Shown one piece after another: positions 2,730-54,254 of a stretch of 64,000 bases of DNA; position 1 is the stretch's first letter; every line of letters starts with the position of its first letter. The stretch comes from an uncultured Methanosarcinales archaeon (GTDB lineage: Archaea; Nanobdellota; Nanobdellia; Woesearchaeales; GW2011-AR15), in contig CAZHYZ010000002.1 in NCBI GenBank assembly GCA_964537195.1, forward strand, positions 296 through 64,295, read 5' to 3'. The notes beneath the pieces were generated by a model, which made no database searches, was not told where the DNA came from, and worked only from the letters and a program-made list of their open reading frames with translations. The translations under genes were made by a program, and so were the position numbers.

Positions 2730-3236
2730 TTATTTCCCCGACAGTATCTTCTCTTTAGTTTTCTCAAAAATCTCCAGAATACCTTTTTTTTCAAAATCTT
2801 TTATGTGCTTACCGATGATTCTATCTTCGCTTGGCACAACAGACTCATTAAAATTTATTTTTAGTCCTCCCTCACTTGCGCCCTTCAAAACAGCAAATAT
2901 TCTTGCTCCTCTTTTAGGTGACTGTAGCCCGATATCTAATATCGCATCTTTTCCCTTTGCTTTCACCCCAATGAGAAGCCCCACAAGATAAGCAGAAGGG
3001 ATATTCCCTTTGTTCTGTTTCCATCCATATTTTTCTAGGTGCTTTGAAGTTATAGTAAACAAAACTTTGTCTCCTTTTTCATCATATTTAACAAGCTGCG
3101 CCATAATGTTCTTGTTAGATTTTCTTACAACTAACCGTGGCTTTTTACTTTTGAGATGTCTCAATCTAGCATTATAGTCTGTTTTTCCTTCTCTCTTCCT
3201 TTTGAAAGGAATTGTAAATACTTTTTTGTTTGCCAT
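2730..3236 (-). CDS. rpl18: 50S ribosomal protein uL18
   Basis: KRKREGKTDYNARL, RLVVRKSNK, GNIPSAYLVGLL, AILDIGL. Confidence 0.97.
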   Translation of the reverse strand: MANKKVFTIPFKRKREGKTDYNARLRHLKSKKPRLVVRKSNKNIMAQLVKYDEKGDKVLFTITSKHLEKYGWKQNKGNIPSAYLVGLLIGVKAKGKDAILDIGLQSPKRGARIFAVLKGASEGGLKINFNESVVPSEDRIIGKHIKDFEKKGILEIFEKTKEKILSGK

Positions 3237-3237
3237 T

Positions 3238-3687
3238 TTATTTCTTGAATAACCCGTGTTCGTTCAAATATAATTTTATGTGACGTTCGCTCCTAAAAAA
3301 TCCTCCTTTGGATTTTGCATACATTTCTTTATAGACTTTTTGATTTATCTTGTTGTTCTCTTTTAATTTCTTCAAAAATTCTCTTTGTCTTCTTATCTTG
3401 TTTATCCATCTTCTTTTTCTTGGAAGCCTTGCGTTTGCTTTTCCTTTTCTGGTTCCTTGCCCCTTTTTTCTCCCTCTTACTTTCTGTTTCTGATTTTTCT
3501 TTGCTCTCGCCCTAGAAACTCCTTTGTTCTGAGATATTTTAATTGCACCATCCCTAATTAATCCTTTTATATCTTGCCTTGTTATTGCCTCAGTAATCTC
3601 TTCTAATCTAGTAGGGTCTAGCTTGACCTTTTTCCTACTTTTTCCTGAGATTTTTGACGCTAATTTTTTTTGTATTCTTGATTTCAT
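3238..3687 (-). CDS. rpl19e: 50S ribosomal protein eL19
   Basis: QKKLASK, AITRQDI, GRKKGQGTRKG, WINKIRRQR, KGGFF. Confidence 0.96.
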   Translation of the reverse strand: MKSRIQKKLASKISGKSRKKVKLDPTRLEEITEAITRQDIKGLIRDGAIKISQNKGVSRARAKKNQKQKVRGRKKGQGTRKGKANARLPRKRRWINKIRRQREFLKKLKENNKINQKVYKEMYAKSKGGFFRSERHIKLYLNEHGLFKK

Positions 3688-20086: not shown

Positions 20087-22042
20087 TTTTATTATTGCAA
20101 ACACAATTAAGCAACCAACACCAATTATCAATCCTGGAAGAATGTTTTTTGATTTTTCTGAAGAGGATTCATAAATGACATTAGATGTAATTGGGTTGGT
20201 GTTGTTCATGTTATCTTTTTCTCCATTCAAATCATTATCTTCTTTTTTTTGTATAACATTCAATGTTTTTGTAATTTCAAATGGTGTTTTTCTTCCTTGT
20301 TTTTTTAGTTTAATCTTTATTTTATACTCCCCTTCATCAATTTCTAACAAATCATTCTCTAAGATTATAATTTTATTAGTGTTGTTCAAGACAACAAGGG
20401 TTTTTTTGTTGGCTTCTCTTTCTGCCGGATAGGATTTTGGTCCCCTAAAAACATAACTCCAGACAGAATAATTAAGAGGGTAATTCTCTTTGTTAAATAT
20501 TTCAATAACAGAGAACACAATGTTTCCTGTAATGTTTCCAGAATAAGCAAGCAATTGAACTTCTGGGTGTGCCTTGTTTTTTTCCTCCTCTGTTACACAT
20601 TCTACTATATTATCAATATCAACTCCAACTTGTGTTTTTACATCAAGTCCTTCAACAAATAAAGTATATGTTCCTGACTCATATTTACAATCTTCTTTAA
20701 GTTGTATTGGAAGAGTAATATCGTGGGTTCTGAAAGTCTCATAGATGTTAAAATAAGTTGTATAACTAACTCGTTCTCCATCATTTTCAACGTATGCTTT
20801 TATTGAGTTCTTAGATGTGTCTCCTTTGTAAACAGACACTCTTGATTTGATTGGCGTTCCAAAAACAATTTCATTAGATACTGAATAAACATTAAGAATC
20901 TCGATTTTAGATTTGTTTTCTTTTATTCCTTTAAAAACAACTATTTTTTCTTGAACTGTGTTGTTGTTTGAATTATTACATATTGCAGTGGTCAAATTTG
21001 ATTTTACAATAAATACTTTTTCTAGTTTGTCAAAGTTTGGTGTGAATTTCTTTGTGTTTGTGTTTTGAGTTATCCTTTTGTTTTTAACAACATTACCAAA
21101 CAGATCTTCCACCCAATATTCTATTTGAAAAGGAAATGTTTCGTTAGAGATTTTATTTATTATACTAATCGTTTCTCCTTGACCATAGATTATTTTATCT
21201 GTTTCCATCTCTAAAAAAACATGACACGGAATGTTCCTGCTCTCGATTGCCGAAATGTTTTGACAGTATCTCAGAGAGGAGTTTTTAAAAAAAAGTTCCC
21301 CACAAATAACATATTCACCAGAGACACTTATATTAATTGTACCTGTTTTGGTGGTATAACTAATAAAGGTGTGTTGAGAGACGTCCTCCCAAAAAAAAGA
21401 TGTGTTGATGGCAGTTAAGTTTTTGTAAAGGGACACATTAACCTTTTCTTTATTTTCTGGATAATTTAGCTTCTTAATTTTGAAAGGGGACAGATAAATA
21501 ACTTCTGTAAAGATCTTTGGGGGAAGAATAAACTCTAACGCTATCTTTGGTTCCGATGGTTTTTCTTTGTTTTCTATAAAAAAACCTAACGGTGTGGGCT
21601 CTGTAACAACCCAGGACCCATTAATCAGCGAAATAGATTTACCTTTTTCAACATTCAGTGAATAAGTTTGATTAATAACTGTTTTGTTCCCCTTAATTAA
21701 CATGATCTTATCGCCTTTGTTTCCAAGACCGTTGCCTAACTCATTATCGTCTACACAAAAATATAATGAGTTGTTTTGTTTTGAAAACGTGTTACTTTGA
21801 TCAAGAAGGAGAAAAAAGTTGTTTTCTGGAACAGACAAATTACATTTTTGATGACCACAACAAGTAAGGGTATCTTTTTGATAATTGTCCATAAAGTAAT
21901 ATTTTGAGAGATTAATCTCTGTATCTGTATATATTTCGACCCACTCATTCCCGTCTGTTGGATTATACATTATTTCTGTCAATTCAATAGCGGAGACACT
22001 AAAAGAAAACAGGAGAAACACAACTAAAAAAAGCTTTTTCAT
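20069..22042 (-). CDS. Secreted, membrane-anchored surface protein with an N-terminal lamin-tail domain
   Basis: Signal peptide; IELTEIMYNP...EWVEIY...LGNKGDKI lamin-tail motifs; beta-rich middle domains; C-terminal TM helix followed by KLKKIR. Confidence 0.75.
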   Translation of the reverse strand: MKKLFLVVFLLFSFSVSAIELTEIMYNPTDGNEWVEIYTDTEINLSKYYFMDNYQKDTLTCCGHQKCNLSVPENNFFLLLDQSNTFSKQNNSLYFCVDDNELGNGLGNKGDKIMLIKGNKTVINQTYSLNVEKGKSISLINGSWVVTEPTPLGFFIENKEKPSEPKIALEFILPPKIFTEVIYLSPFKIKKLNYPENKEKVNVSLYKNLTAINTSFFWEDVSQHTFISYTTKTGTINISVSGEYVICGELFFKNSSLRYCQNISAIESRNIPCHVFLEMETDKIIYGQGETISIINKISNETFPFQIEYWVEDLFGNVVKNKRITQNTNTKKFTPNFDKLEKVFIVKSNLTTAICNNSNNNTVQEKIVVFKGIKENKSKIEILNVYSVSNEIVFGTPIKSRVSVYKGDTSKNSIKAYVENDGERVSYTTYFNIYETFRTHDITLPIQLKEDCKYESGTYTLFVEGLDVKTQVGVDIDNIVECVTEEEKNKAHPEVQLLAYSGNITGNIVFSVIEIFNKENYPLNYSVWSYVFRGPKSYPAEREANKKTLVVLNNTNKIIILENDLLEIDEGEYKIKIKLKKQGRKTPFEITKTLNVIQKKEDNDLNGEKDNMNNTNPITSNVIYESSSEKSKNILPGLIIGVGCLIVFAIIKLKKIR

Positions 22043-22178
22043 GTCTTCTGTTCATCTTCTCTATTTTATATATTTTACTAAAATATTAGTATTAATAATA
22101 TGGAGTAGGTTGTTTTTTGTTGTTTTTCTACAAACAAAAAGCTTTAAAAAGTCTAATAAACTTATTTCTGGTAAGAAA

Positions 22179-23018
22179 ATGGGGTTTTTTGATAGTTTTA
22201 AAAAAAAGGCAGGTGAACAGAGTAATAAAGAGTCTTCTGAACAAATGCCACCTCCACCTAAAGCCAACATACCAAATGTGATTAAACCTCCAGAAAATTC
22301 TCAAATGCCGGCGCCTCCTCAAAAAAAAGAAGTTCCTGGAACTCCCGAACAACAAATTCCGCCCTTGCCACAGTCTAACCAACTAGAGAATCCTCCAAAA
22401 ATGCCTTCTCAATCTGCACCATACCTGAAAAAAGCAATCGCACCTGCTAAAAAAACAGACCTCCCATCACTTCCTCAACAAAATCCTGATCCTTTGTTCC
22501 AACCCTCGCCAGTAACTTCCCAAACCGCACCTTCTTCACCAAGTTTGCCAGAAGAAAAGAAACGTTCTGGTGTCCAGAAAGATCTTACTAATCTGCCAGC
22601 AAGAAACAATATTCAAAACCTGCCCCCTAGATTGCCCGAATTGCCTCAAAAGCTAATAAAAAGAGAGCTCCCAAAATATAATGTAAAGGAGATACCTTCT
22701 TTTGATATTGAACAAGAAATAGAAATGCCTATTCTTGAAGATCTTCCTTTACTAGATGTTGAGGAAAGAGAAGAAATTTATAAGAATTACAGACACAAAC
22801 ACATAAATAAACCTCTTTTTATTAGAACAGACGAATACAAAGAAGTTTTAGAGACTGTAAACAATTTTAAGAACTACTTATCTAATTCATTAGAGATGTT
22901 ATCCTCATTAGAAACACTGAAGAGAAACACAGACATGGAGCATAAAACATACAAAGAATCTCTTGAAGATATTCAAAGAAAACTAATTTATGTAGATAAA
23001 ACCCTTTTCAGTAGTTAG
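22179..23018 (+). CDS. Pro-rich protein with C-terminal helical hairpin (start set at ATG 22179, MGFFDSFKKK)
   Basis: Amphipathic N-terminus, long P/Q-rich linker, C-terminal domain similar to the next gene. Confidence 0.7.
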   Translation: MGFFDSFKKKAGEQSNKESSEQMPPPPKANIPNVIKPPENSQMPAPPQKKEVPGTPEQQIPPLPQSNQLENPPKMPSQSAPYLKKAIAPAKKTDLPSLPQQNPDPLFQPSPVTSQTAPSSPSLPEEKKRSGVQKDLTNLPARNNIQNLPPRLPELPQKLIKRELPKYNVKEIPSFDIEQEIEMPILEDLPLLDVEEREEIYKNYRHKHINKPLFIRTDEYKEVLETVNNFKNYLSNSLEMLSSLETLKRNTDMEHKTYKESLEDIQRKLIYVDKTLFSS

Positions 23019-23030
23019 GAGGACAAATTC

Positions 23031-23258
23031 ATGAAAAAAGACAAAAATGTGTTCGTGAAAATCGATGAATATAATGATATCCTTGATATTATTGCACTTG
23101 TGAATGCAAAAGTCAAAGAAGCTAGAACCACACTAAATAAAATCTACGACTTAAAGAATCAGGAAGATTCGGAACTTGAATCCTGGCAAGAAAGCTTAGA
23201 TGAAGTAGAAAGAAAACTAAAGTACATTGATCAAACCTTGTTTGAACCGAGATATTGA
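23031..23258 (+). CDS. Small helical-hairpin/coiled-coil protein of unknown function
   Basis: GGAGG Shine-Dalgarno upstream; VFVKIDEY...RKLKYIDQTLF is paralogous to the C-terminus of the upstream gene. Confidence 0.75.
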   Translation: MKKDKNVFVKIDEYNDILDIIALVNAKVKEARTTLNKIYDLKNQEDSELESWQESLDEVERKLKYIDQTLFEPRY

Positions 23259-23261
23259 AAA

Positions 23262-23597
23262 ATGAGCAAAGATTTTTTTGTTGGAATCTACGATCCCGTG
23301 GATGTTAGGAGAAACCTTCTTGAAAGTTCTAAATGTATTATTAAATCTCTTAAATCCTCAGATGAACTTAGTAACATAAGGGAAAAAAAGTTAAAATATT
23401 ATAAAAGGATGAGAAGAACGATGGAAGAACTTCACATTCTCATAGATAAATTAAAAGAACAATTGCCCAGGTCATATTTTGAAGAATCTGAGACAGGAAA
23501 GGGGGGGAAAAAAACAAAATCCAAAGTAACAAAAGAGCTTGAAAAATTAGACAAACAACTACAACAAGTCGAAAAAGAGCTTTCTTCGCTCAAATAA
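23262..23597 (+). CDS. Small coiled-coil protein of unknown function
   Basis: FFVGIYDP beta-start followed by long helices; tightly packed with the two preceding genes. Confidence 0.7.
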   Translation: MSKDFFVGIYDPVDVRRNLLESSKCIIKSLKSSDELSNIREKKLKYYKRMRRTMEELHILIDKLKEQLPRSYFEESETGKGGKKTKSKVTKELEKLDKQLQQVEKELSSLK

Positions 23598-35937: not shown

Positions 35938-36827
35938 AGTTCTGAAACCTTTTTGAGATTAAACTGTGATGTAGAATTCATGAAAACAACAATCCCTGCA
36001 ATTATTAGTACCATGCTTGTTGCATTAGTTAGTGTTAGTGGTGTTCCTGTCGTAAATTTCAATAAAGTTGTAATAGGCGATCCCAGTAATAAGATAGCAG
36101 AAGCCAAAGACACAGGTACTTTTTTGAGGCCATTATACCAAGTGAAAACATACAAGAAAAGCATTCCTGATGTAATAAATATCCATGTTAATTGTGGTGT
36201 CGTAATGGTCTGTATAATTACAAATTTTTCTGTTGCTGCAAGATAGATTAATATGAATAATGAACCAAAAAACATTCTGCCAAAGGCCACCATATTTCCA
36301 GAAAGCTCTATTAATGTGTGTTTGGAAATTATATTTTCTGCTGCCCACAAAATTGTAGCAACCAAAATCATCAAATCTCCATAATTAAAACTCCAAGAAG
36401 GTCTCAATAGAAGATAGTTTCCTGTTATCAACAACATAGACGCGGCAATAACTTTTTTGTCAAGTTTTTCCTTCAGAAAAATTATTGCAAACATGGTCAC
36501 AAATATGAAAAGTGATTTATGAATTAATGCTGCACTTGCCCCAGTTGTCAATTGGAGTCCTCTGAAAAACAAAAGAAAGGGAACAGAACCCCCTACAAGA
36601 CCAATTAAGACAATTTTAAACCAGTCTTCTTTCTTTAATTGTGAAAATTCTTTAAGGTTGTTTAATCCAAAAATTAGTGAGAACAAGAAAATTGCAACAA
36701 CGAAATTTTTTGAAAAGGTGAATACACCCGAGTCTATACCTGTGACTCCATATTGATTAAGAAAAATGGAAACTCCACTAATAACTGCGGTAGACAAAAC
36801 AAGTAATAAATGTTTTTTATTTTTCAT
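35913..36827 (-). CDS. EamA/DMT-family transporter
   Basis: About 10 TM helices in two EamA repeats; IFLKEKL, YGDLMILVATILWA. Confidence 0.9.
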   Translation of the reverse strand: MKNKKHLLLVLSTAVISGVSIFLNQYGVTGIDSGVFTFSKNFVVAIFLFSLIFGLNNLKEFSQLKKEDWFKIVLIGLVGGSVPFLLFFRGLQLTTGASAALIHKSLFIFVTMFAIIFLKEKLDKKVIAASMLLITGNYLLLRPSWSFNYGDLMILVATILWAAENIISKHTLIELSGNMVAFGRMFFGSLFILIYLAATEKFVIIQTITTPQLTWIFITSGMLFLYVFTWYNGLKKVPVSLASAILLLGSPITTLLKFTTGTPLTLTNATSMVLIIAGIVVFMNSTSQFNLKKVSELWLSKTKH

Positions 36828-36834
36828 AAATTAC

Positions 36835-36846
36835 TACAAATTTGTA
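36835..36846. promoter_or_regulatory. Perfect 12-bp palindrome in the divergent promoter between the DMT and FNR genes
   Basis: TACAAATTTGTA, 7 nt upstream of the DMT start codon. Confidence 0.3.
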
Positions 36847-36943
36847 AATTATAAAAGTTTTACTATATTGTGTAAGTGTAGATATTTTTATAAATCATAT
36901 AGACAATTATACTGAACATATCCTGAAAAGAGGTGTTTTTAAC

Positions 36944-37633
36944 ATGCACAAATCAAAAGTAATTAAACTAATTAAAGAAACTCACGATACTTGGACAATA
37001 CAGTTTGAAAGGCCAGAAAATTTTGATTATAAGCCCGGACAGTATTGTATCTTTGAGAAAAAAATGGGTGACGAATTAATTAGGAGATCTTATTCGTTGT
37101 CTTCTTCTCCAACTGAGGAATTCCTTCAGATAACTGTTAAACACATACCCAATGGAAAAATGTCTACCTACCTTACTCAATGCTCTTCTGGAGAGGTGTT
37201 GAAATACAATGGCCCTATTGGAAAATTTGTGTTTGATGAAACTTATAATAATGTGGTTTTTATTGCGGGAGGCTCTGGCATAAGTCCTTTTAGAAGCATG
37301 CTTAAGTACGTTTTAGATAAAAAATTACAAACAAAAGTAACTGTGATTTATGGTTCAAGATCTCCAAAAGACATTATTTTAAAAGAGGAGTTAGAAGAAC
37401 ATAACAAAAGAGAGAATGTTAACCTATATTTGACTGTGGATTATCCGGACGAAGAATGGAAGTTTCATTCTGGATTTATTGATATAGATTTCATAAAAGA
37501 AGCAACAAAGAATGACTTGTTTGATAAGGATTATTTTCTAATAGGGCCACCACCCATGGTAACTAATGTAAAAAACGGTCTCATGAAAGCAAATGTCCCA
37601 GAACCCCAGATTCATGTTGATGCATGGGGTTAG
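36944..37633 (+). CDS. FAD/NAD(P)-binding oxidoreductase (ferredoxin-NADP reductase-like, no Fe-S domain)
   Basis: YKPGQY, RRSYSLSS, GKMSTYL, FIAGGSGISPF, GPPPMV; GAGGTG Shine-Dalgarno. Confidence 0.9.
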   Translation: MHKSKVIKLIKETHDTWTIQFERPENFDYKPGQYCIFEKKMGDELIRRSYSLSSSPTEEFLQITVKHIPNGKMSTYLTQCSSGEVLKYNGPIGKFVFDETYNNVVFIAGGSGISPFRSMLKYVLDKKLQTKVTVIYGSRSPKDIILKEELEEHNKRENVNLYLTVDYPDEEWKFHSGFIDIDFIKEATKNDLFDKDYFLIGPPPMVTNVKNGLMKANVPEPQIHVDAWG

Positions 37634-37698
37634 GCATTATAATGCCCTTATAATGGTGTTATAATGCATTATATAATGCGTTATAATGCATTATAATT
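37633..37698. repeat. Helically phased TTATAATG repeat array with embedded palindromes
   Basis: Units at 37637, 37648, 37659, 37671 (variant), 37681 and 37691 (variant); palindromes GGCATTATAATGCC (37633-37646) and GCATTATATAATGC (37666-37679). Confidence 0.85.
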
Positions 37699-37709
37699 GA
37701 TCTTGTCTT

Positions 37710-38408
37710 TTAAAAATTAAACAAAGTCTTAACTAACTCAGAATTCTTTATTGTAAATATCTTTTGTCCGTTCGGACCTTTAAACTCATCTATTATTCCT
37801 TTTTTTGATTTTAAAGAGTTCATATATACTCTAATTGAATTTACAGACTTATTTTGCTTCTGTGCTATGTTTTTATATGTTAAAGGCTTATTTTCGTTAA
37901 AAAGAAGGCTTAAAAGCTCTTTTTCTGGGTTGGTTAATTCTGTTGGAGCATTATAATGTGTTATGTTATTAACATCTGTTTCTTCAAAGTCATTAATAAT
38001 GGGTTCATATTTTGGTGTGTCAAGCTCATTAAGTATGTCTTCCTTCAAGGTGTCGTGTTTTGGAACTTCTTCTAACCTATGTTCTAGATATTGAACCAGA
38101 ATCTTATGATATTCTTCAAAATCCTTTTTTAAAGAGGCCCTTATGTCTCTCTTGAGCGTTGAAAGCTCTTTCTTAAGGGTTATGTGTGAATCATTTAGGT
38201 GTTCTATCCATTGCGATATGTTGTCTATTTTTTTGATGATCTCTTTTTTATGTTTTGTATTGCTCTCAGAAATGTATTTAGTATAACCATGTAAATTTTT
38301 ACTAAAATCATGTAATTGATTCAACCACTTGTCTTGTCTCGATAATTCTCTTTGCAAATGAAAAAAATCCTCCTTCGGCTGTGTTGTCTTAAAAAACTTC
38401 CCTCCCAT
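37710..38408 (-). CDS. Coiled-coil protein with C-terminal winged-helix domain (start set at 38408)
   Basis: N-terminal heptads; LTNPEKELLSLL...LTYKNIAQKQNKSVNSIRVYMNSLKSK wHTH. Confidence 0.75.
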   Translation of the reverse strand: MGGKFFKTTQPKEDFFHLQRELSRQDKWLNQLHDFSKNLHGYTKYISESNTKHKKEIIKKIDNISQWIEHLNDSHITLKKELSTLKRDIRASLKKDFEEYHKILVQYLEHRLEEVPKHDTLKEDILNELDTPKYEPIINDFEETDVNNITHYNAPTELTNPEKELLSLLFNENKPLTYKNIAQKQNKSVNSIRVYMNSLKSKKGIIDEFKGPNGQKIFTIKNSELVKTLFNF

Positions 38409-38480
38409 ATCATTATTGCTTATTTTGAAATTTATATTATTTTCTATAAATTTAATAATCAAGTTTTCTTTCGTGGCGTT

Positions 38481-39365
38481 ATGGAAAAACAAATGTGTGT
38501 TGTTTGTGGAAAAAAACCAGTACTAAATAAACCTGTGTATTGTAAAAAACACTTCATTAATTATTTTGAAAAGAAGGTTAAAAAAACAATTAAGAAATTT
38601 AATTTGATTAAAAAAACAGACAAAGTTGTTGTTGGTGCATCGGGCGGAAAGGATTCTATGGCTGTTTTGCACGTGCTTAATAAACTTGGTTATAATGTCA
38701 CTGCATTGGCAATCAATGAAGGAATTAAAGACTATAGGGACAACACAATTAAATTATTAAAAGAATATTGTAAAAAGCAAAAACTTCCTCTTAAAATTGT
38801 GTCTTTTAAAGAAGATTTCAATAAAAACTTGGATGAAATTATTGAAGAAAAAGATTTGCGTCCTTGTACTGTATGTGGTGTGTTTAGAAGATATTTATTA
38901 AATAAATATGCTGATGGTTTTGACGTGTTGGCAACCGGACATAACTTGGATGATGAAGCTCAAGCAGTACTAATGAATTTGACAAAGAGTAACATTGGTG
39001 CATTAAAAAGACAGGGACCAGTATCTGGAATTAGAAAAAATGACAAGTTCACAAAAAGAGTTAAACCACTATATTTCTGCTCTGAAAAAGAAATAATGTT
39101 TTATTCCTCAATTAAAAAGTTGGTCATTGATTTTAGTTGCTGCCCTAACATAAGTGATTCATTTAGATTAAGATATAAACGTTCCCTTAATGCTTTAGAA
39201 AAAAAGTTTCCAGAAATAAAAGAAAATCTTGTTGGTTGGTATATTAACTACAAAAAAGGATTAGAACTTCCTAGTGAAGATATAGGAACATGTAAAAGAT
39301 GCGGACAGCCCAGTACAAACGATGTATGTAATGCATGTGTTTTTGCTGAAAAAATAAGCGCATGA
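38481..39365 (+). CDS. tRNA 2-thiolation protein (TtuA/NcsA/Ctu1, TIGR00269-like); start set at 38481
   Basis: CVVC...CKKHF, SGGKDS PP-loop, CTVCG, TGHNLDD, CCP, CKRCG...CNAC. Confidence 0.9.
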   Translation: MEKQMCVVCGKKPVLNKPVYCKKHFINYFEKKVKKTIKKFNLIKKTDKVVVGASGGKDSMAVLHVLNKLGYNVTALAINEGIKDYRDNTIKLLKEYCKKQKLPLKIVSFKEDFNKNLDEIIEEKDLRPCTVCGVFRRYLLNKYADGFDVLATGHNLDDEAQAVLMNLTKSNIGALKRQGPVSGIRKNDKFTKRVKPLYFCSEKEIMFYSSIKKLVIDFSCCPNISDSFRLRYKRSLNALEKKFPEIKENLVGWYINYKKGLELPSEDIGTCKRCGQPSTNDVCNACVFAEKISA

Positions 39366-39932: not shown

Positions 39933-39973
39933 ATCCACAACTTTTTTATATCTTGTTGCTTTTTAATGAGACT

Positions 39974-41119
39974 ATGTCCAAGATAGAAACTGGTGTTGAT
40001 AAATTAGTAGAATTAATAAATACTGGGGAAAAAATTTCTGTTGAAGACGCTGCAAAAAAATTAGGGATTAGTAAGGTTGTTGTTCAGGAATGGGCTTCTT
40101 TTTTAGAGGAGGAAAAGATAATTAGTATAGACTATAAATTCTCAAAAACATTCTTAATACCTAGAAAACTTACAGAAAAGGAAGTAAAAGAGAAGAAAAA
40201 AGAGTACACTTCTGAAAAAGATGCTTTTGTCAGAAAAGTAGAAAGTAGTTTAAAAAGTTTAGATAGTGATTCTCTTGGTCTAGAAAAAATAAAAAATGAG
40301 TTCAAAAATTTAAAGAAAGACATAGGTGGTGAACTTGCGAGTGTAAAAACAGAGGTCGAGCAACTTGAGAAATATGAGTATTTGAAAAAAAATCTGGACA
40401 AAGACATAGAAAAACAGGTTCAACAATTTAATGAAATACTGGACAAATCTCACGAACAAATTAATATTGAGCAGAAGAAACATCAACAATTGGTTGAACA
40501 GCTTGATATACAAAAAAGGGATCTAGAAGTAAAGGAACACAGATTATTAAATCTGGAAGAAAAGGAAAAAGAACTGTATGACAGAATCCAAAGCATGGTT
40601 GATCTTTCAAAAGAAATTGAAAAAAAGCTTCAGAGTGAAAAATCCGACATAGATGTGTCTGAAGACCGTGTATTAAATTTGCAAAAATCTGTCAGAGAGA
40701 TTGAAAAACAAATAACGAACAAGAAGAAATCACTTGAACCTTTAATCAATAAAGCAAAAAAGCATGAAGAAGAAATTTTGAAACTGCAGGAAGAGATACT
40801 TAAAAAGGCTAGCCAAAAAACTGCTGAGATACAAGCTAAGGTAGAAGAAGGAGGCAAGGCCATGCAAAAGTTTGAGAAGTTTTTTGAAAAAAAGACAGAA
40901 ATAGAATCATTTATATCAGATATTGAAAAAGAGCAAGAAGGACTAAAAGAAGATTATGAATCGCTGAAGAAAAAAGCTCTTTCTTTTGATCTGGCATCTA
41001 AATCAAATACTATCAACACACATGTAAAGGAAATGGAGAAACAACTTGAAGGTGTCAATCAAAAAAAGGGAAAGTTTAAGGAAGATTTAGAAAAATTAAT
41101 AAAGCTGATAAAAGGATAA
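39974..41119 (+). CDS. Winged-helix plus long coiled-coil protein leading the pilus operon (start set at 39974)
   Basis: ETGVDKLVELI...ISVEDAAKKLGISKVVVQEWASFLEEEK wHTH, then about 300 aa of heptads. Confidence 0.75.
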   Translation: MSKIETGVDKLVELINTGEKISVEDAAKKLGISKVVVQEWASFLEEEKIISIDYKFSKTFLIPRKLTEKEVKEKKKEYTSEKDAFVRKVESSLKSLDSDSLGLEKIKNEFKNLKKDIGGELASVKTEVEQLEKYEYLKKNLDKDIEKQVQQFNEILDKSHEQINIEQKKHQQLVEQLDIQKRDLEVKEHRLLNLEEKEKELYDRIQSMVDLSKEIEKKLQSEKSDIDVSEDRVLNLQKSVREIEKQITNKKKSLEPLINKAKKHEEEILKLQEEILKKASQKTAEIQAKVEEGGKAMQKFEKFFEKKTEIESFISDIEKEQEGLKEDYESLKKKALSFDLASKSNTINTHVKEMEKQLEGVNQKKGKFKEDLEKLIKLIKG

Positions 41120-53911: not shown

Positions 53912-53970
53912 TTTATCTCCAAATGAAATAGAGGTTTATAAAGATTTGTATACTATAAATAAGTACCCTG

Positions 53971-54151
53971 ACCCCCCTTCACTTCAGATGGAAACTTTTT
54001 TTAATTAAAAAGTTATGTAATAGATTTTCTTTTATTTGTAAATATTAAGTTTTTATCAAAATATTTTCTTTATATTTATTTACAATATAGTAAATAATAA
54101 AACATATCTTTTATTATTTTTATTTATAGGTTCCAATAGAAAAAGAGGGGT
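53971..54151. other. Probable chromosomal replication origin (oriC)
   Basis: Two inverted ORB-like boxes with G-strings (GTTTCCATCTGAAGTGAAGGGGGGT on minus 53995-53971; GTTCCAATAGAAAAAGAGGGGT on plus 54130-54151) flanking a very AT-rich segment, directly upstream of cdc6. Confidence 0.8.
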
Positions 54152-54254
54152 ATGGGTATTGCCATTACTAAATGATAGTAAAAAACAACAAGTTTTAAAT
54201 ATAAGTTGTCTTTGCCTACTCACACTAATTACAAAAATAATAAGGGATGAATAA

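Follow-up and report, generated by a model that had tools for sequence, protein, structure and literature searches.

In ParR–parC (R1, pSK41), TubR–tubC and the omega–heptad systems, DNA units of 7–12 bp recur once per helical turn, and many copies of a dimeric adaptor, which is encoded next to them and whose specificity diverges fast, bind them cooperatively along one face of the helix. In archaea, SegB (segAB) and AspA (pNOB8) bind palindromes adjoining their own genes and have been proposed as centromere binders, AspA being a winged helix that spreads from its site. RocS of Streptococcus pneumoniae carries an amphipathic helix that holds the membrane only with oligomerisation, a layout shared with pSK1 Par and RacA (PMC11500499), and RicO of Staphylococcus aureus binds both origin-proximal ricS sites and the membrane (bioRxiv 10.64898/2026.03.06.710092). 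KfrA is a coiled-coil helix-turn-helix (HTH) protein that sits on phased direct repeats and contributes to plasmid maintenance (PMC7783346). Little is known about the positioning and segregation of chromosomes in archaea other than the Sulfolobales and Halobacteria. The DPANN archaea are tiny, in most cases uncultivated and frequently episymbiotic, and no paper was found on any centromere, tether, segregation or origin-anchoring factor for them. Here, a stretch of 64,000 nucleotides (the window) of contig CAZHYZ010000002.1 from a Woesearchaeales genome was analysed, in which an array of phased palindromic sites adjoins the gene for a 232-amino-acid (aa) protein with a coiled coil and a winged helix-turn-helix (wHTH) domain; the literature search returned no paper on this protein family either.

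The array is very probably the cognate site of the adjacent 232-aa protein. This judgement is based on four observations: the adjacency survives at least eight changes of the array word, the word is exclusive to the locus in 13 genomes, dyads phased at one helical turn suit winged-helix dimers, and an intragenic site changes together with the array. Sequence comparison shows a locus-specific site that is kept with the gene and shifts with the DNA-reading residues, from which binding by the protein is predicted. The two components and the intragenic site are located as follows.

37634–37698, no strand: phased array of six palindromic sites with a TTATAA core, occupying the gap between two convergent genes
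37710–38408, minus strand: gene for the 232-aa protein of an undescribed family, the presumed array binder (stop codon 37710–37712)
37949–37958: solitary intragenic site CATTATAATG, 260–314 bp from the array, in linker-coding DNA (codons H-Y-N-A)

The dyad centres of the six array sites lie at 37639.5, 37650.5, 37661.5, 37672.5, 37683.5 and 37693.5, with steps of 11, 11, 11, 11 and 10 bp. The individual sites are given below.

37635–37644: site 1, CATTATAATG, within the 14-bp palindrome GGCATTATAATGCC (37633–37646)
37646–37655: site 2, CCTTATAATG, with one half-site degenerate
37657–37666: site 3, TGTTATAATG
37667–37678: site 4, CATTATATAATG, with the core widened by 2 bp to TTATATAA, within the 14-bp palindrome GCATTATATAATGC
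37679–37688: site 5, CGTTATAATG
37689–37698: site 6, CATTATAATT, forming jointly with site 5 the 16-bp palindrome TTATAATGCATTATAA

A preliminary description of this DNA had reported six TTATAAT(G)-type units spaced 10–12 bp apart, two perfect 14-bp palindromes, and a further copy at 37948–37958 within an adjacent gene for a coiled-coil/wHTH protein. The spacing was confirmed, the further copy is present as the 11-mer GCATTATAATG, and the palindromes turned out to be more numerous, with four perfect ones of 14–16 nt in the array, namely GGCATTATAATGCC (37633–37646), TATAATGCATTATA (37660–37673), GCATTATATAATGC (37666–37679) and TTATAATGCATTATAA (37681–37696). The array starts one base past the TAG stop codon of an oxidoreductase gene and ends 12 bp short of the stop codon of the coiled-coil/wHTH gene. 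It takes up almost the whole 76-bp intergenic gap, and there is coding DNA on either side.

Tandem Repeats Finder assigned periods of 22 and 10 to the array, with 75–78% matches. The word TTATAATG occurs 13 times in the window, compared with 4.6 ± 2.4 after shuffling (none of 100 shuffles reached 13), and GCATTATAATGC with at most one mismatch occurs three times, compared with 0.14 expected. In the whole genome (1.24 Mb in 46 contigs, 32.5% G+C), which contains 1094 TTATAA hexamers, the array is the sole spot with at least four of them per 65 bp and the sole cluster of more than three TTATAATG. A scan of positions 36500–39000 against Rfam at E ≤ 1 gave no match, indicating that there is no known RNA gene in the gap.

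The presumed binder consists of four parts, delimited with an AlphaFold model (confidence given as predicted local distance difference test, pLDDT) and an alignment of its relatives (alignment A1).

38385–38408, minus strand: N-terminal peptide MGGKFFKT, with the conserved motif M-x(0-3)-G-G/x-F/W-F/L/I-x-x-F/L in A1
38067–38366, minus strand: residues 15–114, one unbroken helix of ~100 residues (~15 nm), presumed coiled-coil stalk, pLDDT 92–97
37932–38066, minus strand: residues 115–159, variable linker holding the intragenic site, pLDDT 38–66, hypervariable columns in A1
37713–37931, minus strand: residues 160–232, wHTH DNA-binding domain with the recognition helix KSVNSIRVYMNSLKSKK

Since a 100-residue helix cannot stand alone and the heptad a/d positions of the stalk are moderately hydrophobic (0.5–0.88 in 28-residue windows), a coiled coil is presumed. 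Residues W28, H33, H53, E56, W67, D96, Y100 and H101 of the stalk are conserved in A1. The C-terminal domain modelled alone (pLDDT 81.6, predicted template modelling score 0.65) has the winged-helix topology α1-β1-α2-α3-β2-β3, followed by a further helix. With this isolated domain, Foldseek retrieved MepR, SmtB, CzrA and AdcR at template modelling (TM) scores of 0.75–0.81 and root-mean-square deviations of 1.4–2.8 Å (probability 1.00, E ~1e-3), while the full-length model gave merely weak matches to NarL/DosR-type HTH proteins (E ≥ 0.25). The coiled coil and the wHTH domain of the preliminary description are therefore both supported by the models, the helix 15–114 by a pLDDT above 90 and the C-terminal winged helix by its match to the MarR/ArsR type, whose dimers read half-sites ~10 bp apart. 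The MarR/ArsR-like membership holds at the level of the fold; at the sequence level, the Pfam families HTH_24, HTH_11 and Sigma70_r4 were all below threshold. Searches of the curated families in Pfam, NCBIfam and PHROGs gave just sub-threshold HTH and coiled-coil matches for the protein family, and a sequence search of PDB chains with the 232-aa protein gave no significant match. No enzymatic domain (ATPase, helicase or primase) and no second winged helix was found in it. A profile search of 1.84 billion representative proteins returned 253 relatives at E ≤ 1e-3, 89 of them at E ≤ 1e-10, and the family is therefore small and lineage-restricted.

The N-terminal motif, MGGKFF in this protein, appears as MAGGFFDFL, MEGGFLNLF, MGVFDKLF or MGFLEDIF in relatives, and a membrane-targeting or partner-docking element is possible from its sequence. 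A similar N-terminus is found elsewhere in the window, at 22041–23597, in a protein that starts with MGFFDSFKKK (past an upstream in-frame extension) and continues with a Pro/Gln-rich linker of ~170 residues up to a C-terminal domain that is helical and of which two small paralogs come next. Such a peptide with a long Pro/Gln-rich tether is the usual layout of membrane-targeting peptides, and is given here as a lead.

The linkage of gene and array was followed across the Woesearchaeota, using for the order-wide set a profile search of 401 genomes; the cross-locus tallies were made by sequence searches and reading of the sequences, not by a single script, and loci (L), genomes (G), contigs (C) and families (f) carry our own numbering. 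All nine orthologs from the same GTDB family (32–53% identity) have an array straight 3' of the stop codon, with lengths from ~65 bp to ~400 bp including AT-rich spacers. The same was found in metagenome contigs that reach the downstream DNA, where 20 out of 20 orthologs (30–53% identity) are followed by CATTATAATG-type copies starting 5–67 bp past the gene. Of 26 further loci inspected in the order, an array adjoins the gene at about 22, copies lie 0.8–1.3 kb off at two, and two others lack them. In total, a phased palindrome array is present within ~5–350 bp past the stop codon of the ortholog at about 50 loci in many Woesearchaeota families, and the exact 10-mer is kept between orthologs that are merely 30% identical. 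The preliminary description had left open whether orthologs are flanked by similar arrays, and the answer is strongly positive.

The genes around this pair are variable. In the window, the convergent neighbour, which is context and lies outside the module, is the following.

36944–37633, plus strand: FAD/NAD(P)-binding oxidoreductase gene (Pfam NAD_binding_1, 2.5e-21; FAD_binding_6, 2.4e-15)

The oxidoreductase is also the convergent neighbour in L002–L004 and L075, and a placement of the array between convergent genes was seen in at least eight genera. A thiI-like gene with the same orientation begins ~85–110 bp downstream of the array in the f90/f95 clade, and other lineages have AOR/ferredoxin, ThyA-DHFR, ThyX or a tRNA gene at the module, the constant elements being the gene and its 3' array. 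Sulfur-relay and tRNA-thiolation genes surround the module in its own family (window 38484–39365; L075 8851–12586), comprising a gene for an NcsA/TtcA-type PP-loop ATPase and, annotated in L075 only, genes for a ThiS-like protein and a ThiF-type E1. Together with the thiI-like gene of f90/f95, they may reflect coincidence or a regulatory link. A mobile-element origin of the module was considered and rejected, as no relatives were found in 72,556 plasmids, 50,697 phage records and the IMG/VR viral contigs, and the neighbours are housekeeping genes.

Some further features of these loci were recorded. In L047 (200–1500; G092:C70), no obvious gene is present in the ~1.3 kb after the ortholog, an unusually long non-coding stretch for a 1.5-Mb genome, and three clusters of CATTATAATG-type sites lie in it at ~1150–1000, 600–555 and 310–290. 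A second conserved box, TTCTCGTC(G/T)A, is found in several relatives between the stop codon and the array or within the array, whatever the motif class (L002 1478–1487, L003 1479–1488, L027 3714–3723, L028 3050–3059 and 3112–3121, L060 2403–2412, L067 1233–1242). It is absent from the locus in the window, occurs at chance frequency in that genome, and remains unexplained. Downstream of the array of L009 (2470–2600, G005), a tRNA-like gene on the opposite strand with a long insert, possibly an intron, was noticed by eye. In the window itself, 1.5 kb from the module, positions 39953–41119 encode a 388-aa protein in which an HTH-like segment at the N-terminus, KISVEDAAKKLGISKVVVQEWASFLEEEKIISIDY, precedes a coiled coil of ~300 residues; it has no family match beyond a weak PHROG, and its neighbourhood to the module is not conserved in other genera.

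The array word itself changes among lineages. Eight motif classes were distinguished across the order, and the dyad symmetry and the phasing of 10–11 or 22 bp are kept in each of them.

CATTATAATG: own family, f74, f90 and part of f95
CGTTATAACG: L051, L053, L054 and L058
TGTTATAACA: L009
CGTCTAGACG with GCCCATGGGC, GC-rich: f133
TGTTGCA/TGCAACA: L062
GGGACAAA: L063 and L072
AAGGACAT: L064, L066, L068 and L074, the array calls at the distant loci L064 and L066 resting on two or three copies
TTTAGTCGACTAAA: L069

In an alignment of the recognition helices (alignment A2), the sequence ..S(I/V)RVYMN.. goes with TTATAA cores, ..(V/I)KVY(I/V)N.. with CGTTATAACG in L054 and L058, ..VKNHVC.. with TAGACG, ..VRVNMN.. 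with TGCAAC, and ..IRNLIY.. with GGGACAA. RVY is retained in L051 and L053, where the sites are of the mixed form GTTATAA(T/C)G, a combination that looks like an intermediate.

Exclusivity of the word to the locus was determined in 13 genomes, eight for GCATTATAATG and five for CGTCTAGACG. All copies of GCATTATAATG are at the locus in G000, G004, G006, G008 and G012, as are six out of seven in G009, six out of 11 in G003 and two out of seven in G010, while the reversed control word gave no copy in any of the eight genomes. For CGTCTAGACG, 15 out of 16 distinct sites in the five f133 genomes are at the locus. In the genome under study, the 10-mer occurs five times, two of them at the locus, and ~5.5 copies are expected from base composition. 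A dispersed regulon was therefore considered and rejected, since the copies away from the locus are at the level of chance. The genome-wide count that the preliminary description had proposed thus places the array word essentially at the module locus alone.

The intragenic CATTATAATG site or its HYNA codons are kept in close orthologs (L024, L025, L027; A1 rows). In four out of the five f133 genomes, one CGTCTAGACG lies ~355–366 nt into the gene, likewise in the linker region. Since the intragenic site switches its word along with the 3' array in these two motif classes, the sequences argue for selection on the DNA site and not on the peptide.

The position of the module relative to the replication origin was also studied. 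The single clear orc1/cdc6 gene of the genome (52688–53911, minus strand) heads an operon with two PolD subunit genes and lies 14 kb from the module. Directly upstream of it, inverted boxes resembling the origin recognition box (ORB), ..CCCCCCTTCACTTCAGATGGAAAC.. and ..GTTCCAATAGAAAAAGAGGGG.., at ~53965–53998 and ~54128–54158, enclose ~130 bp of nearly pure A/T. The segment 52688–54254 is a canonical archaeal origin, 16 kb from the array. No ORB-like box was found in or next to the array, the pattern being present at the origin (window 53972) and on contig C24. Since the cumulative GC-skew minimum of the window, near 22–24 kb, follows gene orientation, the skew is uninformative for the array locus. 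In 14 genomes of 0.8–2.3 Mb with both genes on one contig, the gaps between module and orc1 are 8, 9.5, 11, 11, 15, 32, 45, 47, 52, 55, 57, 71, 142 and 208 kb, and in L075 the PolD genes are 6 kb from the module. Proximity to the origin is thus a clear tendency, not a universal rule.

Paralogous modules were observed as well. Contig C24 (3000–3622) carries a 140-aa gene (3200–3622, plus strand) whose product is related through its C-terminal wHTH to 'type B' proteins, as found in L076 and L078. Ahead of this gene are TTTTGTCTCA repeats at 11-bp spacing and an ORB-like box, GCACCCCTTCATTTCCTGTGGAGC. Besides this box, the only match of the pattern CCCC..TTCAYTTC..TGGA in the genome is the ORB at the origin. 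Contig C10 (32507–32923) encodes a 138-aa homolog of the coiled-coil/HTH family (tblastn 1e-22 to a short homolog of G035), and no repeat array was seen within ~1.5 kb of it. Such short homologs are the bulk of the weaker matches in the order-wide search. In L076 (1062–2740; G035, closed genome) and L078 (370–1720; G223), a short homolog and a 'type B' gene, whose product starts with MGWIF or MAGLF, adjoin each other beside one phased array, formed by six TTGGGACAGTCCC 3' of the type B gene in G035 and by three TGTCCTAGGAC at 11-bp spacing 5' of the type B gene in G223.

Concerning the function of the pair, the reading preferred here is a non-transcriptional nucleoprotein complex acting as a centromere-like or membrane-tether handle, to which a probability of roughly 0.45 is given. 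It is favoured because many phased sites lie in a spot without a promoter and would form one complex per chromosome, the protein has a 15-nm stalk and a conserved terminal peptide, no regulon was detectable, and the module is frequently close to the replication origin. Dimers or higher oligomers, joined by the ~15-nm coiled-coil stalk, would seat their winged-helix domains on successive TTATAA cores and, the cores being one helical turn apart, all protein copies would be on one face of the DNA. One more copy could occupy the solitary intragenic site, ~260–310 bp away. The outcome would be a single large and highly specific nucleoprotein complex per chromosome, placed between convergent genes where there is no promoter, with stalks that may project the conserved N-terminal GGxFF peptides toward the membrane or a partner. 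We infer that new protein would be loaded in cis by coupled transcription–translation, since the DNA-binding domain is translated last and the array begins 5–67 bp past the stop codon, so that the protein would be released beside its site.

A wider proposal is more tentative. Woesearchaeota, and probably other DPANN archaea, may mark their chromosomes with self-contained and mutually orthogonal modules of a gene and a phased array, each protein loading in cis onto the array of its own module, as an NTPase-independent, kinetochore-like handle (NTPase, nucleoside triphosphatase) that would anchor the origin-proximal region to the membrane or the division apparatus. Several modules per genome are possible, and the Orc1-type box of the C24 module hints that such handles are linked with replication control.

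Several observations weigh against the structural handle or weaken its support. A homolog was scored in 90 out of the 401 genomes of the order; as this is about a fifth of them, either the function of the module is dispensable or it is carried by proteins too diverged for detection. The covariation of motif and recognition helix is not statistically separable from shared descent, since motif and protein both diverge with phylogeny. Gene and orc1 are on separate large contigs in G092 and G407, they are 142–208 kb apart in G187 and G311, and a distant paralogous module in the closed genome G035 sits 329 kb from orc1; the short distances elsewhere may come from inherited synteny. The N-terminal peptide, missing from some rows of the alignment, is of small length and has a weak to moderate amphipathic signal (hydrophobic moment, uH, 0.3–0.8 over 9 residues). 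The module has no linked gene resembling those for ParA, actin or tubulin, and the ParA/MinD-type genes are on other contigs of the genome. Finally, in the f90/f95 clade, the array may have a regulatory role upstream of the thiI-like gene.

This last point belongs to an explanation that is rather unlikely for the module as a whole, namely that the array is the operator of a protein acting as an ordinary transcription factor, serving autoregulation and/or the control of neighbouring genes, by a roadblock or by looping between the 3' array and the intragenic site in this genome, or, in f90/f95, as an upstream site that activates or represses the thiI-like gene. Most wHTH proteins with nearby palindromes autoregulate, the fold is MarR/ArsR-like, and KfrA combines autoregulation with a maintenance role. 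The intragenic site and the 3' array together could stop elongation through the gene itself, and thiolation genes are near the module both as the thiI-like gene, in the same direction 85–110 bp downstream of the array at many loci, and as the tRNA-thiolation genes (ThiS, PP-loop ATPase, ThiF) around it in its own family. However, the array of at least eight genera is flanked by the stop codons of two convergent genes, a place with no promoter, so that it cannot be a promoter operator at those loci. The gene's own promoter region (38409–38483) has no site, the motif elsewhere in the genome is not above chance, so that no regulon is seen, and 6 to more than 20 phased sites over up to 1.2 kb far exceed the needs of an operator. 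The neighbours, moreover, change with the lineage (oxidoreductase, AOR/ferredoxin, thiI, tRNA, ThyA/ThyX), and gene and 3' array alone are constant. A replication element is improbable, whether as a second origin with iterons fired by a Rep- or WhiP-like protein or as a control locus for the nearby Orc1 origin. Iteron-like phased repeats beside the gene of their binder, the AT-rich stretches interspersed in the larger arrays of some relatives, the closeness to orc1 in many genomes and the ORB-like box within the repeats of the C24 module would all fit such an element. Nevertheless, a canonical origin with inverted ORB-like boxes around ~130 bp of A/T by orc1–polD exists 16 kb off, there is coding DNA on both sides of the array and no space for an unwinding element in this genome, and no ORB-like box is in or beside the array. 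Arrays of other classes are GC-rich (CGTCTAGACG, GCCCATGGGC), the protein has one winged helix without an ATPase, helicase or primase domain, and no relatives were found on plasmids, phages or viral contigs. On these grounds, the Rep/iteron comparison made in the preliminary description was not borne out.

The simpler alternative named there, a bidirectional terminator, would make the array a mere transcription 3'-end element, in which RNA hairpins end or stabilise convergent transcripts and the protein is irrelevant. RNA hairpins would form, as both strands fold far better than shuffled sequences (−26.8 and −21.9 kcal/mol, z = −3.8 and −5.0), a simple scan gives one terminator-like hairpin, and the array is placed exactly between two convergent stop codons. 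Archaeal termination uses oligo-T tracts, but no run of at least five T exists on either strand in 37634–37698. A hairpin needs neither the 11-bp phasing nor the intragenic copy, and termination leaves unexplained that orthologs of just 30% identity share an exact 10-mer, that the word is unique to the locus in each genome and that its changes parallel those of the recognition helix; the array also persists in the thiI clade, where the genes point the same way. This explanation is thus very improbable. A chance or neutral minisatellite, arisen in AT-rich DNA through replication slippage on a unit of 11 or 22 bp, could account for the period-22/10 repeat of Tandem Repeats Finder (75–78% matches) in a genome of 32.5% G+C. 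The comparative sequence data practically refute it, since the array has the same position relative to the gene in ~50 loci of many families, is unique in each genome, and has units whose dyad symmetry goes beyond simple repetition.

Regarding the centromere/adaptor comparison of the preliminary description, the part that stood is that gene and array belong together, and it is still the most attractive reading; the function itself is one that we infer, and an NTPase partner is not linked. If the structural handle is true, DPANN archaea would have in the module their first candidate device for chromosome segregation or positioning, an independently arisen archaeal counterpart of the RocS, RicO, RacA and Par tethers. 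With a protein of 232 aa and a DNA element of 65 bp, the locus offers a concrete pair that can be tested, and the natural specificity variants among lineages are ready orthogonal controls for binding and localisation work in heterologous hosts. Even if the pair is regulatory, arrays of sites after a stop codon, a site within linker-coding DNA and the repeated turnover of the word are unusual, and of interest for protein–DNA recognition and genome organisation.

Comparison with known families was also made at the level of individual domains and linked genes. With the ParB family TIGR00180, the HTH segment alone aligns (profile positions 112–165); it does so in 11 out of 21 members and scores 23.5 bits, below the cut-off of 58.45. 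Pfam gave no ParBc match for the protein family. No gene for a ParA-type ATPase was found within 10 kb of the module in the window or in L075, the CbiA/ParA-superfamily genes being on contigs C1, C35 and C23. The single winged helix gave no family match to the Rep_3-type Rep with two winged helices that characterises iteron systems, and the array does not have the Orc1/Cdc6–ORB composition of an origin. MarR and ArsR-SmtB regulators are the best structural matches of the C-terminal domain (TM 0.75–0.81), and as dimers they recognise palindromes whose half-sites are separated by about one helical turn. In contrast to the module, with its 100-residue stalk, its six-to-many-site array outside promoters and no sequence-level membership, these regulators are compact dimers with ligand- or metal-sensing cores that act on one or two promoter operators.

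Among archaeal proteins, SegB and AspA showed no sequence similarity to the 232-aa protein in the Pfam, NCBIfam and PDB searches. They differ from the module in having sites upstream of the operon, a ParA-type ATPase in the operon and no long coiled coil, and they are not known from DPANN archaea. With ParR–parC, TubR–tubC and the omega–heptad systems, the module shares units phased at one turn beside the presumed adaptor gene and a rapid divergence of specificity. Unlike in the module, the adaptors of those systems pass the DNA on to a motor (actin-like, tubulin-like or ParA) encoded by a linked gene, their arrays usually overlap the operon promoter, and two of the adaptors, ParR and omega, belong to the ribbon-helix-helix class.

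KfrA of the IncP/IncU plasmids RA3 and RK2 resembles the module in being a coiled-coil protein with one HTH and a row of short phased repeats by its own gene; it oligomerises through its tail and has an accessory role in DNA maintenance, as the 232-aa protein may do. The two differ in that the HTH of KfrA is N-terminal, its direct repeats overlap its own promoter for autoregulation, and it is plasmid-borne, bacterial and partnered by IncC/KorB (ParA/ParB), whereas the module has a C-terminal DNA-binding domain and palindromic sites 3' of the gene and is chromosomal. Neither a Pfam match nor homology to the KfrA family was found, and the promoter region 38409–38483 has no site.

The tethers RocS, RicO, RacA of Bacillus subtilis and pSK1 Par combine, as the protein of the module presumably does, a site-specific DNA-binding domain of the HTH type, a coiled-coil stalk and a short terminal hydrophobic or amphipathic peptide, and no dedicated NTPase is encoded alongside. 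Unlike in these tethers, the order of the domains is reversed in the module, with the peptide N-terminal and the DNA-binding domain C-terminal, and the host is an archaeon. No homology to the tethers was found by sequence or Pfam; DUF536, the domain of RocS and pSK1 Par, gave no match in any of the 21 members, whose C-terminus is a winged helix in place of a MinD-like amphipathic helix. The functional class of RocS and RicO is suggested here by the N-terminal sequence motif and a weak hydrophobic moment, and membrane binding is putative. Instead of the dispersed sites of RicO (nine) and RacA (~25), there is one dense phased array beside the gene. The chromosomal sites of RicO and RacA are near the origin, as the module often is, and these tethers need multivalency for membrane binding. 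A phased site array with a coiled-coil adaptor is of a known kind; what is new is the family of the protein, found in a domain of life and a chromosomal context that are unexplored in this respect.

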